Source of the DNA: Octopus sinensis | Taxonomy: Eukaryota | Assembly (NCBI RefSeq): GCF_006345805.1 | Contig: NC_043008.1 | Location: 60,822,001-60,886,000, forward strand | Direction: 5' to 3' | Length of the DNA stretch: 64,000 bases | Part shown: positions 16,547 through 57,220 of the stretch, one piece after another | Position numbering within the stretch: the stretch's first letter is position 1 | How the letters are laid out: every line of letters starts with the position of its first letter | Program-made: the position numbers and the translations under genes | Notes under the pieces: model-generated | What the model was told of the DNA's origin: nothing | What the model saw: only the letters and a program-made list of their open reading frames with translations | Databases searched by the model: none

Positions 16547-17374
16547 TATACATACATACATACATAGATACATACATACATAATAGATGCATACATACAT
16601 GCATACATACATGCATACATACATACATACATACATACATACATAGATGCATACATACATACATACATACATACATACATACATACATACATACATACAT
16701 ACATACATTCATACGTACATACATACATTCATACGTACATACATACACATATACATACATGCATAAATCGGAAGCTTAGGAGAACAACGGCATTGATAGG
16801 AAGAGTAGCTTCTCTGGGGTCTACGGTAGATATTAATACTTCCCTTCTTAATGAATATGCCTTCGCCATCGAGGAACATGAGATAGCTACTAAATACCGA
16901 ATAAGCAACACGGATTAAGATAGCACCAAAACAACACATTTTGGCAGAAAATGACGTTCCTACTATACTGGCGTGATATACATGACCACCCATCATCAGC
17001 TGTACCAAAATATCCAAGATATAGTAGCAGTCTCTGATGTAACGTAGCTGCAAAGGCTATTTACAGTTCAACCCGCAGGAAGGACTGCTATGAGGTATAC
17101 ATCGAAGACATGTCAGAACCAGCGGGTATGCACGTCTTTAAAACAAGGAATACTGGCGAGATACCCCAATTAAAAACTAACGAACATTTTACTGTTCTTT
17201 GGGACAGGGTATAAAAGTAATGCACGGTTATAAAGGCCAGCAGCCCAACAGAGGTTAGTGTACCGTCAACAATCCATAAAAAAAGAACATTTATGGCGTG
17301 AAGAATTATGTTTGAATATATCGAATGCCTGTTTTGCGGATTTATGATTTATCATTTACCGACAACTACACATG

Positions 17375-17512
17375 CTTTATTTTCTCTCCTTGTTTCTTTC
17401 TGTGTTCCTTTCTGTGGAAGAGCGTAGGCTCAAAACGTTAAAGGCATTTTTCAATTCCCGAGCGTTATACTAATACATTTGTTTATTGTCTGTACCACTT
17501 GCCTTCGTGTTT

Positions 17513-17520
<8 letters not shown>
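17375..17520 (+). repeat. Penelope pLTR-like repeat with a variant minimal hammerhead (17407-17444)
   Basis: CCTTT-CTGTGGA-A-GAGC GTAG GCTC-AAAA-CG-TT-AAAGG. Homologous copies at 19830-19970 (-) and 44370-44550 (+). Confidence 0.6.
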
Positions 17521-17565
<45 letters not shown>

Positions 17566-17710
17566 TAACAATTGAGGATAACATCTTTAAAAGAAATTAT
17601 CAGTAGTCAGCGTGAAACCTCGTAAGAGAAAAAAATCCGTAAATTCTTCCTCTTTGAAAATATTCATTTATATTATATTGAGGGTACTACTATTCGTAGA
17701 TACCACACGC

Positions 17711-19786: not shown

Positions 19787-19829
19787 CATACTTATATATA
19801 TATATATATATAAATATATTGAGAATATA

Positions 19830-19970
19830 CGAAAAACAAAAGTCGAAGATGGGTGTGTAAACAGGAAATAGATGCATTAGTTTAACGCTCGGGAACTGGG
19901 AAAGTCGTTTACGTTTCCAGCCAACGATCATCGACAGAAAGCAACACAGAAAAAACAGGGGAGAAGAAAT
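19830..19970 (-). repeat. pLTR-like repeat (17375 family) with decayed hammerhead at 19907-19941
   Basis: Minus strand CTTT-CTGTCGA-TGATCGTTGGCTG-GAAA-CG-TA-AAC, with flanks homologous to 17375 and 44370. Confidence 0.55.
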
Positions 19971-35551: not shown

Positions 35552-36120
35552 AGGACGGTGAGCTAGCAGAATCGTTAGCACACCGGGCGAAATGCTTAGC
35601 GGTATTTCGTCTGTCGGTACGTTCTGAGTTCAAATTCTGCCGAGGTCGACTTTGCATTTCATCCTTTCGGAGTCCATAAATTATGTACCAGTGACGCACT
35701 GGGGTCGATGTAATCGACTTGATACCTATGTCTGTCCTTGTTTGTCCCTTCTTTGTTTAGCCCCTTGTGGGTCTATAAAGAAATAGAAATAGGTATTTCG
35801 TCTGTCCTCACGTTCTGAGTTCAAATTCCGCCGAGGTCGACTTTGCCTTTCATCCTTTCGGGGTCGATTAAATAAGTACCAGTTACGCACTGGGGTCGAT
35901 ATAATCGACTTAATCCATTTGTCTGTCCTCGTTTGTCCTCCTGTGTTTAGCCCCTTGTGGGTAGTAAAGAAATAGAAATAGGTATTTCGTCTGTCCTCAC
36001 GTTCTTTGCCTTTCATCCTTTCGTGGTCGATAAATTAAATACCAGTTGCATACTGGGGTCGATCTAATCGACTGGGCCCCTCCCTAAACATTTAGGGCCT
36101 TGTGCCTAGAGTAGAAAAAA
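35552..36120 (+). mobile_element. Family A SINE trimer
   Basis: One full unit, then two units that restart at GGTATTTCGTCTG after AAAGAAATAGAAATA. Confidence 0.9.
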
Positions 36121-44124: not shown

Positions 44125-44257
44125 TATTCGAGACAAAACCACTATTTGCAAAACAAACAAGGAAAGACTTAATCAATACATAAAATTTTATGTATTGATT
44201 AAGTCTTTCCTTGTTTGTTTTGCAAAATAGTGGTTTTGTCTCGAATAATATTTTATA
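44115..44257. repeat. Spacer-less palindrome with arms of about 70 bp
   Basis: Centre CATAAAA|TTTTATG at 44185/44186. The arms differ by a 1-nt indel. Confidence 0.95.
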
Positions 44258-44371: not shown

Positions 44372-44546
44372 GGTTCAGACGCCATGATAGATCGTTAGCC
44401 ACTACAGACATTTTTTTCTCTCCTTGTTTTCTGTGTCCCTTTCTGTAGAAGAGCGTAGGCTCGAAACGTAAAATACATCCTAATACATCTGTTTGTTTTG
44501 TACACCACCTGTCTTTGTCTTTTGTTTTTTTCGTAAACTCACCCAA

Positions 44547-44550
<4 letters not shown>
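44370..44550 (+). repeat. pLTR-like repeat with variant minimal hammerhead (44440-44473)
   Basis: TTT-CTGTAGA-A-GAGC GTAG GCTC-GAAA-CG-TA-AAA. Confidence 0.6.
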
Positions 44551-44578
<28 letters not shown>

Positions 44579-44738
44579 AAGAAGTTATCCTAAATTGTTA
44601 AATGTATTCCGAAAAACTTTTCCTATCCGACATGCAGTTCGAAAAAGCCCGCCATATACCGAATATATGATTTATAAACATTTCCATGTGCTTCGCCGGA
44701 GAGAGCAGATGTCGTTTATTTATGATGTGTTCAGAATC

Positions 44739-44806
44739 AGTTCTACTGATGAGCATAGACGCATTTTTTTATGTGGTAAGTGTGAAATCACAGGTGATAT
44801 AGAACT
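44739..44806 (+). ncRNA. Type I hammerhead ribozyme, intact core, all three stems
   Basis: AGTTCTA-CTGATGA-GCAT..CGCAT TTTTTT ATGTG..GTGT-GAAA-TCA CAGG TGA-TA-TAGAACT. Stem I is 7 bp perfect. Confidence 0.85.
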
Positions 44807-46111
44807 AAATTCATTTTTTAAATGTCTTGCTTTGAAAAACTGCATTAGGTACGATTAGTGAAATTTTGGTAGTAATGACTTATGTCCCTCTTAGTGTGAG
44901 GCATTTATGTGTAATAATGCCCTCTATACAATATAAATATAAATATATATATATATATATTATATATATATATACACATATAAATGCAAACGGAGAGAAG
45001 AAAAAGACTAAAGATATTCAGACGATGAATATTTATTCAAATATATACATATTGATACATTAATAGATCAAACTTAGACAGAGTCCAAACGACAGATAAA
45101 TTTGAAGGAGAGGATGTAAGGTGTTATGACTCAAGCAGCTGTTTCTGGGGACTCGGTGATCTATCATAAAGTTCGTAGATTTATTTCACGCAAGTATGCA
45201 GCCAGTAATAGAAGCAAATAAACATTGGATCAATAAAACCTCCTCGTCAGGGTAGAAAATGCTGTTATATTTAATTTCTTTAGCCGCATAATAACTCCAC
45301 ATCTCTCTCCTTATCTATTTGTATGAATATATATTTAGGTTTTTGACATCTGCTATTTCTTTTTTTTTAGCTTTATAATTTATTTGTATTAATGAAGCCT
45401 TATAATATCATACATATAAATTAATTATACATCCATAGTTTTCCATTTTGTTTTTTTCATTATTAATAATATTTATTACTGTAATAATCCCTAACATATC
45501 GTCGAGACTTTCTCCTTATACGATAATGATTAACCAGTCAAAATTTTGGATTATTTAATCTCCCTAGTGAGGACTTGACATCCTCGAATTGATTCTACAT
45601 ATGCATGTGTGTGTGAGAGAGAGAGAGAGAACATAAATGTACAACACACCAATCTACAAATATGGTCTATCTATCTATCTATCTATCTATCAATTTATCT
45701 ATCTAAATATCTATCTCTCTATCAATTTATCTATCTCTCTCTCTCTGCCACACACACTCTTGCACATACATACACGCACATCTCCCTCGCACACACGCAC
45801 ACACATATAGACTTAGATACGACAGTCGTAAGTACTGACCTCTGACTAAAGTACGCAACATTGACAATTCATTCAAGAAGAATGAGAGCATTAAAAGGAA
45901 GCCAATGGAAATAGTCGGAACGTTGAGACGTTGTTCAGATATCCTGGCGGACATATTTCCAATAAACAAAACGTAACTCTCGATTAAAACGTGCATATCA
46001 TGTTAATGGACGTTGATTAAAAGCCTGCTGTTTTTAGTAAAATCATCATAAATTATAACAATATAGATCATCTCTCTGTCTGTCTCTCTGTCTGTCTCTG
46101 TCTCTGTCTCT

Positions 46112-56799: not shown

Positions 56800-57220
56800 A
56801 CGGCGAGCTGGCAGAAAAGTTAGCATGCCGGGCGAAATGCTTAGCGGTATTTCGTCTGCCGTTAGGTTCTGAGTTCAAATTCCGCCGAGGTCGACTTTGC
56901 CTTTCATCCTTTCGGGGTCTATAAATTAAGTACCAGTTAAGCACTGGGGTCGATATAATCGACTTAATACCTATGTCTGTCCTTGTTTGTCCCCTCTGTG
57001 TTTAGCCCCTTGTGGGTAATAAAGAAATATAAATAGGTATTTCGTCTGCCGTTAGGTTCTAAGTTCAAATTCCGCCGAGGTCGACTTTGCCTTTCATCCT
57101 TTCGGGGTCGATAAATTAAGTACTAGTTACGCACTGGAGTCGATGTAATCGACTTAATACCTATGTCTGTCCTTGTTTGTCCCCTCTATGTTTAGCCCCT
57201 TGTGGGCAATAAAGAAATAA
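56800..57220 (+). mobile_element. Family A SINE dimer
   Basis: The second unit restarts at GGTATTTCGTCTG after AAAGAAATATAAATA, the same junction as at 35552. Confidence 0.9.

Follow-up and report, generated by a model that had tools for sequence, protein, structure and literature searches.

Hammerhead ribozymes are well described in animal tandem repeats and at the ends of PLEs, so that the motif by itself is ordinary. Metazoan non-LTR retrozymes (Cervera & de la Pena 2020, PMC7229834; Li, Clavereau & Pollet, bioRxiv 10.64898/2026.07.22.740005) are described as non-coding, low-GC tandem units with one type I hammerhead each, occurring as monomers, dimers, and multimers in genomes where autonomous PLEs are also found. 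Helix III of metazoan hammerheads is typically short, palindromic, and dimer favoring (PMC4209133; PMC6765202). PLE insertions are characterized by partial tandems, inverted 5'-truncated copies, an optional tail, and a preference for (TA)n (PMC8557442), and an Anolis PLE has two internal initiation sites (PMC11167929). A squid genome was already reported to hold 235 Hammerhead_1 matches (PMC6962438). The literature that we searched on hammerheads in octopus and other cephalopods gave no account of the family described below, which may be listed in Repbase, Dfam, paper supplements, or subscription journals.

Here we describe a hammerhead motif in a 64-kb stretch of the Octopus sinensis genome (hereafter, the window). 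Its host repeat shares with the retrozymes above the non-coding, low-GC tandem units with a single type I hammerhead, the range from monomers to multimers, and the co-occurring autonomous PLEs. From folding models and comparisons among copies, we consider it probable that the motif is a type I hammerhead in a lone, truncated copy of a ~480-bp repeat likely mobilized by PLEs, that it would act mainly as a double hammerhead through a palindrome, and that the solo copy would at best cleave weakly. Arrays in which every ORF-less unit has a single type I hammerhead agree with the definition of a non-LTR retrozyme, and the family fits an already described kind of element, the PLE-type non-LTR retrozyme.

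The hammerhead motif and its host repeat

The motif lies on the forward strand at 44739-44806, where AGTTCTA (44739-44745) and TAGAACT (44800-44806) form seven Watson-Crick pairs of stem I, the 3' strand being recognized from the sequence, the alignment of copies, and covariation. Four further pairs are predicted to extend this stem across a small internal loop (44734-44737 with 44809-44812). The catalytic core comprises CUGAUGA (C3-A9) at 44746-44752 and GAAA (G12-A15.1) at 44784-44787. Between them, the two-tier stem II (44753-44783) consists of an outer helix, GCAT (44753-44756) with GTGT (44780-44783), an internal loop, and an inner five-pair hairpin, CGCAT/ATGTG (44760-44764 with 44771-44775). 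The four outer pairs are G.U, C-G, A-U, and U.G, with G10.1.U11.1 closing the stem. The stem III region is a 12-nt palindrome, AUCAC-AG-GUGAU (44787-44798), which can pair either within a monomer, as a 3-bp hairpin (TCA-CAGG-TGA, 44788-44797) with the A15.1-U16.1 pair (A44787-T44798), or between copies, as a 5+5-bp duplex. Hammerhead geometry, which is established knowledge, predicts cleavage 3' of A17 at 44799, within the triplet ATA (AUA, 44797-44799), an accepted cleavage triplet that obeys the NUH rule. The first-pass annotation had listed the 7-bp stem I, the CUGAUGA/GAAA core, a two-tier stem II, a stem III, and the AUA triplet, every one of which is found in the sequence; it overlooked the palindrome and the four additional stem I pairs.

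A strict type I descriptor matched the window once and none of 200 dinucleotide shuffles, while the bare core pattern gave 11 matches against a mean of 4. CUGANGA, GAAA, and NUH follow in order with stem I open, as expected for type I, and both stem I and stem II carry internal loops. A G10.1-C11.1 pair is preferred for hammerhead cleavage rate, and the window copy has G.U at this position. No Rfam family matched anywhere in the window at the gathering score, and no hammerhead matched 44700-44850 at E<=10; the long two-tier stem II may be the reason for the missing match. The descriptor result, together with the covariation of stems I and II, upholds the view that the motif is a true type I hammerhead whose core is intact. 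It is the only family member with a hammerhead in the window.

The motif sits in a solo, 5'-truncated copy on the forward strand (44575-44938) that spans ~0.8 of a non-coding ~480-bp unit. A (TA)n microsatellite marks the 5' junction (44546-44577), and another (44931-44982) follows the 3' end, which is the first of two preferred 3' ends of the family and lies ~139 nt past the predicted cut. Six near copies differ from the window copy by 6 substitutions over 363 columns (~1.7%), two 1-bp indels, and a private 28-bp deletion whose junction (44710-44711, forward strand) is just 5' of the hammerhead. A private CpG-type change, 44774 C>T, falls in the inner stem II hairpin and is predicted to have no effect on the active fold. 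The host genome (2.7 Gb) is AT rich and rich in microsatellites. The 44 window ORFs of at least 110 aa resembled, when judged by eye, low-complexity sequences or retroelement fragments, and the copy could not be assigned to a host gene.

Several other repeats were seen in the window. Directly upstream of the copy, at 44372-44545, lies another kind of repeat that ends in (TA)n and has, at 44449, a degenerate core (AAGAGCGTAGGCTCGAAACG) resembling that of a minimal hammerhead; this repeat recurs at 17365-17560 (+) and 19793-19969 (-). A 96% 3' fragment of a related 498-bp sister unit, lacking the hammerhead and ending in (TA)n, is found at 17566-17710 (-). A long near-perfect inverted repeat with weak, sub-gathering-score matches to miRNA models lies ~330 bp upstream of the copy (44128-44245), and a ~190-bp SINE-like repeat forms head-to-tail dimers at 35601-36005 and 56846-57219.

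The full unit is 483 bp long with 33% GC and a longest open frame of 68 aa. A loose stem III pattern hit 2,029 sites in the genome versus 5 for the reversed control, and many of the matches listed form arrays at ~477-bp spacing. Tandem units that each carry a complete type I hammerhead occur at loci L108 (at least nine hammerheads), L181-188, and L134, unlike the window copy, which is a solo partial unit. Two long arrays (G000:C1:38173720-38180695 and C1:71388468-71395259) each consist of two inverted arms of ~477-bp units, with at least 15 and at least 14 sites, respectively. Beside one family copy, a GC-rich flank (L099:731-2018) gave the impression, from its translation, of ribosomal DNA-like sequence. 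Contigs of four presumed-RNA runs on L004:1100-2100 covered the unit in parts and in many subfamily variants and were uninformative on ends, strand, and circles.

Conservation of the fold and the closing pair of stem II

We aligned 125 complete hammerheads from 106 loci, a sample that skips 29 partial matches and is biased by the patterns used for picking loci. G8, A9, A13, A14, A15.1, U16.1, and A17 are invariant in all 125 copies, and U4 is replaced by C in 29. In stem I, the pair adjoining the core has undergone a compensatory change from A-U to G-C in 28/125 copies; in the stem I extension (44734-37/44809-12), the commonest pair is retained in 119 to 124 of the 125, with no two-sided change seen. 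Among 13 hand-picked subfamily representatives, 9 of 23 pairs are altered on both sides (5 of 7 in stem I), which none of 500 shuffles reached, and slid controls gave at most 2, although these counts are inflated by relatedness and the pattern used to choose several of the representatives included the stem III arms. The covarying changes are plain by eye. In related families that are ~67% identical, stem I has been rebuilt as GUUGCA/UGUAAC or AGGCCUG/CAGGUCU, and one such family has stem II shortened to AUAC-GUAA-GUAU. Conservation of the repeat does not peak at the hammerhead, which is 72 to 80% identical between two unit families compared, versus 88% near the second 3' end. Two more young unit families with their own hammerheads (97 to 98% identical; L111-L140 and L211-L240) were observed, one with a perfect AUCACAUGUGAU palindrome and an A.C closing pair and the other with a 4-bp, GUAA-capped stem II. 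Because stems I and II covary across subfamilies, the comparison of copies indicates that the fold formed by these two stems is real. The arms of stem III are invariant, and covariation therefore cannot separate a monomer from a dimer.

The pair at positions 10.1-11.1 is A-U in 36 of the 125 copies, U.U in 32, G-C in 27, A.C in 17, and G.U in 13, so that 98/125 copies lack G-C. U4C accompanies 26 of the 27 G-C pairs. All 11 copies of the U4/G.U subfamily, to which the window copy belongs, share the G.U pair, and U11.1 is found in the A-U and U.U subfamilies as well; exact 22-mers with U11.1 and C11.1 hit 61 and 51 sites, respectively. In trees built from all columns (91 rows) and with the hammerhead columns removed (88 rows), the G-C/U4C clade falls inside the G.U copies, although the two trees are rooted differently and the support in the hammerhead-free tree is unstarred, at 89 to 90. 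The suggestion that the G.U pair arose by CpG decay of a G-C pair in the window copy is not supported, since a subfamily-wide pair with the G-C clade nested among its copies points to an inherited state. We claim on the basis of these trees that G-C/U4C would be the derived condition within the G.U copies. A full polarity from A.C through A-U and G.U to G-C was rejected: it appeared only when the hammerhead columns were kept, and without them the root moved and support fell. Another register of stem II, in which 44753 would bulge out, was also rejected, because C44754 would then face U or C.

A non-G-C closing pair has an active precedent in a U.U pair (PMC7229834) and would therefore be expected to lower the cleavage rate, not to question the identity of the hammerhead; no rate figure for G.U at 10.1-11.1 was found in the literature that we searched. 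The idea of a built-in attenuating defect in every subfamily fits 124/125 copies and is contradicted by a separate subfamily (L195, L202, L205, and L207) that combines a canonical CUGAAGA core with G-C. This subfamily and locus L096, which has U4 together with G-C, imply that the genome contains better monomer candidates than the window copy, which the first-pass annotation had ranked as the best.

Predicted cleavage as a monomer or as a dimer

Subfamilies differ at the center of the palindrome, where they have AG, G, AU, U, or no base at all, but keep the same arms down to the innermost C and G. In 25 loci picked by BLAST, 14 have G at the center, 9 have U, and 2 have none; the AU, U, and absent centers come from such loci and are independent of the stem III pattern. 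In the folding model, the palindrome scores +0.4 kcal/mol as a hairpin versus -11.2 kcal/mol as an inter-copy duplex. The best fold of the window monomer is a rod (-14.3 versus -10.8 kcal/mol for the active fold) in which CUG-A-UGA of the core pairs with UCA-CAG, so that the core is buried and the monomer stem III probability is 0.01. When two copies were joined by an artificial linker, the double hammerhead was the unconstrained minimum, at -31.5 versus -22.6 kcal/mol for two active monomers. A dimer gain as large as this 8.9 kcal/mol was obtained with only 27 of 256 swapped loops. The monomer penalty is unremarkable, as 105 of the 256 loops are equally bad and the best still carries 1.7 kcal/mol. 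Nearest-neighbor folding ignores tertiary contacts and underrates three-way junctions, and an ordinary penalty that persists even for the best loop indicates that part of it is the junction bias of the model.

Real tandem pairs gave a similar picture for stem III. In 16 of 19 pairs from about nine loci, none of them from the window's G.U subfamily, the inter-copy stem III probability was at least 0.97, and in 17 of the 19 the monomer stem III probability was 0.01 or lower; for the matching inter-copy stem I, only 5 pairs attained a probability of 0.5. These models suggest that in a solo transcript the CUGAUGA core would pair with UCA-CAG to give an inactive rod, and that in a tandem transcript neighboring palindromes would pair and free both cores. 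Activity favored by dimerization is thus a reasonable expectation, though a moderately held one, and monomer cleavage of the window copy is possible. As no second family hammerhead lies within the 64-kb window, the window copy could dimerize only in trans.

The strongest alternative is that the same hammerhead cleaves efficiently as a monomer, the 3-bp stem III being sufficient and the palindrome incidental or optional. This reading draws on the intact core and on the 7-bp stem I, for which short constructs give a predicted probability of 0.99. C(NN)G tetraloops, like the one that would cap the monomer stem III, can be stable, which we counted in its favor. Stem III also exceeds the 1 to 2 bp of canonical metazoan hammerheads (PMC4209133), and retrozyme hammerheads of a coral and a mussel, with a stem III shorter than that of the window copy, cleave alone, at ~0.8 and ~0.1 per min (PMC7229834). 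It must contend with the predicted rod and near-absent stem III, the G.U and U.G pairs at both ends of the four-pair outer stem II, and the largest tandem subfamilies, in which the loop is cut to 3 nt and the palindrome kept. Moreover, the private 28-bp deletion has moved flanking sequence closer, and in longer transcripts this sequence is predicted to break up stem I. We therefore regard efficient monomer cleavage as rather unlikely. The earlier statement that the motif should not need to dimerize is doubtful on the same grounds, namely, the conserved palindrome, the double-hammerhead fold predicted to be much more stable, and the predicted inactive rod, and retains some backing from the published short-stem-III hammerheads. 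A "true stem III" survives in part: TCA-CAGG-TGA and the A-U pair are present, although they belong to a palindrome with fixed arms and a variable center.

The choice of transcript matters for any assay. The span first proposed, 44710-44830, has a predicted stem I pairing probability of 0.00, versus 0.99 for 44730-44815, because of predicted upstream pairing. A failure of the longer transcript to cleave would consequently refute nothing.

Probable mobilization by PLEs and comparison with known systems

To describe the insertions, we sampled 177 segments from 106 loci, after dropping four overlapping loci from 110. The 3' ends of 142 segments fall inside two narrow zones ~118 bp apart, 123 segments run directly into (TA)n, and the 5' ends are scattered. 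An inverted part is present in 58/106 loci, and 41/106 are longer than one unit. This architecture fits the published PLE pattern, although the gap between the two family 3' ends exceeds the usual PLE tail of 30 to 40 bp (PMC8557442). Under the dimer-favored reading, and by analogy with published retrozymes, read-through transcripts of arrays would be cut to unit-length RNA and circularized by a host ligase. Published PLE work suggests that an RT/GIY-YIG protein would then nick (TA)n DNA and that reverse transcription would start from one of two internal sites, which could account for the pair of 3' ends as well as for truncated and inverted copies. The window copy would represent one truncated insertion, and with its single hammerhead it cannot yield a unit circle.

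Several families of intact ORFs with an RT plus, at the C terminus, a GIY-YIG domain (775 to 784 aa) are present in the genome, and the two inspected have a Cys-rich linker as described for Neptune/Nematis (PMC8557442). One young, intact element (L242, L243, and L256, the last at G000:C17:73900-83899) forms true tandems and has near-identical copies on many contigs. The hammerhead in its pLTR, UGAAC CCGAAGA UUGCA...UGCAU GAAA GUAC UA GUUCA, has U4C, U.U at 10.1-11.1, a minimal palindromic stem III (AGUACU), and UA at the cut, and (TA)n begins 138 to 141 or 168 to 169 nt past the cut. Since this element was recently active, its non-G-C closing pair and U4C are not signs of decay. Local alignment of its pLTR with the units gave scores that do not exceed those of shuffles, and it is a candidate helper by its architecture only. 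Two further observations were made at PLE loci. A second intact family (L161-L165, 781-aa frame) has a 3' repeat with several TGATGACGTC motifs, and a relaxed scan of L161, L162, and L165 found no hammerhead. Near PLE loci, L175 and L253 have in common a motif resembling a hammerhead, in which the core is a variant one (TTGATAA ... GAAA CATG TC) and stem III is palindromic.

The unit might instead be the solo pseudo-LTR of an undetected autonomous PLE and not an independent, non-autonomous retrozyme. Its insertion architecture resembles that of PLE pLTRs, retrozymes have been reported as pLTR derived (bioRxiv 2026.07.22.740005), and the candidates that we scored were 150 of 5,029 for GIY-YIG and 150 of 11,574 for RT. 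Head-to-tail arrays at L108 and L181-188 are ORF free between units, and neither inside the unit nor between units in tandem did we find an ORF, so that RT and GIY-YIG between pLTRs, the mark of an autonomous PLE, is lacking there. ORFs of at least 250 aa in 110 loci, inspected by eye, were low-complexity sequences or apparent other repeats, none of them PLE-like. In 60 PLE loci, there was no sequence similarity to the unit, which was at the terminus in 0/60; a single inserted sister-family copy lay near one PLE locus. We judge a solo pseudo-LTR to be quite unlikely. Very improbable, finally, is that the hammerhead is a catalytically irrelevant relic, its fold inherited but its cleavage without a role in spreading the repeat. 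This reading would suit the 124/125 copies with U4C or a closing pair other than G-C, slow in vitro cleavage by PLE hammerheads (PMC4209133), cleavage that is dispensable for lizard PLE insertion in the one in vitro system (PMC11167929), and the failure of 8 of 9 frog retrozyme dimers tested to cleave (bioRxiv 2026.07.22.740005). It is opposed by stems I and II having changed repeatedly in a compensatory manner among ~67%-identical families, by the invariance of the core GA, AAA, and UA, and by the canonical CUGAAGA core with G-C in another subfamily.

The preferred reading of a PLE-mobilized repeat acting mainly as a double hammerhead can be pushed further, to a copy-number switch in which the palindrome would serve as an anti-core strand that locks solo copies, and only tandem transcripts would cleave to unit circles as passengers of the L256 family. 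We consider this extension improbable; if true, the circles and this element would form a directly testable helper-passenger system for animal retrozyme movement. The practical value of the family is that it is young, has ~2,000 sites, and offers a natural series of closing pairs (A.C, A-U, U.U, G.U, and G-C), a U4C core variant, and palindrome centers of 0 to 2 nt, which would allow clean tests of monomer versus dimer cleavage. An intact candidate helper PLE in the same genome provides a way into the question of whether PLE proteins mobilize retrozymes.

Retrozymes as a class are known from linear and circular unit-length RNA, whereas the octopus family is assigned here from its DNA architecture. 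Its ~480-bp unit is longer than the 170 to 400 nt given for retrozymes in PMC7229834 and inside the 51 to 972 bp of bioRxiv 10.64898/2026.07.22.740005. Its stem III, a 12-nt palindrome, is longer than in the metazoan retrozymes of PMC7229834, and several of its subfamilies have two tiers in stem II. The axolotl HHR_Amex2 of Rtz_353 resembles the window copy in its non-canonical helix II base pair, firmer helix III, and tandem context; with U.U at the base of helix II and a 2-bp helix III, it cleaves 22% as a monomer in 1 h and much better as a dimer (PMC7229834), whereas activity of the window copy is a prediction.

PLE pseudo-LTR hammerheads, including the Drosophila virilis Penelope variant (Cervera & de la Pena 2014, PMC4209133), are likewise type I with a palindromic helix III and a long helix II, and they too fall into many subfamilies that show compensatory changes and occur in inverted pairs separated by a few hundred bases. 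As they are described there, the window copy differs in its 7-bp stem I, 3-bp stem III, and direct succession of A9 and 10.1, and the octopus family differs in its unconserved G10.1-C11.1 pair and lack of an attached ORF. Minimal hammerheads (min-HHR), with helix III absent or of 1 to 2 bp, a short helix I, and a bulge after A9 (PMC4209133), share the palindrome with the window copy, which departs from them in each of the other features.

The Anolis Poseidon PLE PAc parallels the octopus family in its AT-rich targets, two internal 3' ends downstream of the pLTR hammerhead, and partial tandems (PMC11167929). PAc is autonomous, has a hammerhead that overlaps the ORF start and needs protein, and has adjacent 3' ends (30- to 40-bp tail), in contrast to the ~118 bp between those of the octopus family (PMC11167929). 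The Dolichopoda pDo500 satellite hammerhead offers another invertebrate unit of similar size, ~460 to 505 bp, for which single- and double-hammerhead routes were proposed (PMC2837043). The proposed pDo500 double hammerhead forms stem III within one copy, whereas in the octopus family stem III is predicted to form between copies, and it is the octopus family for which we document dispersed insertions of the PLE type.
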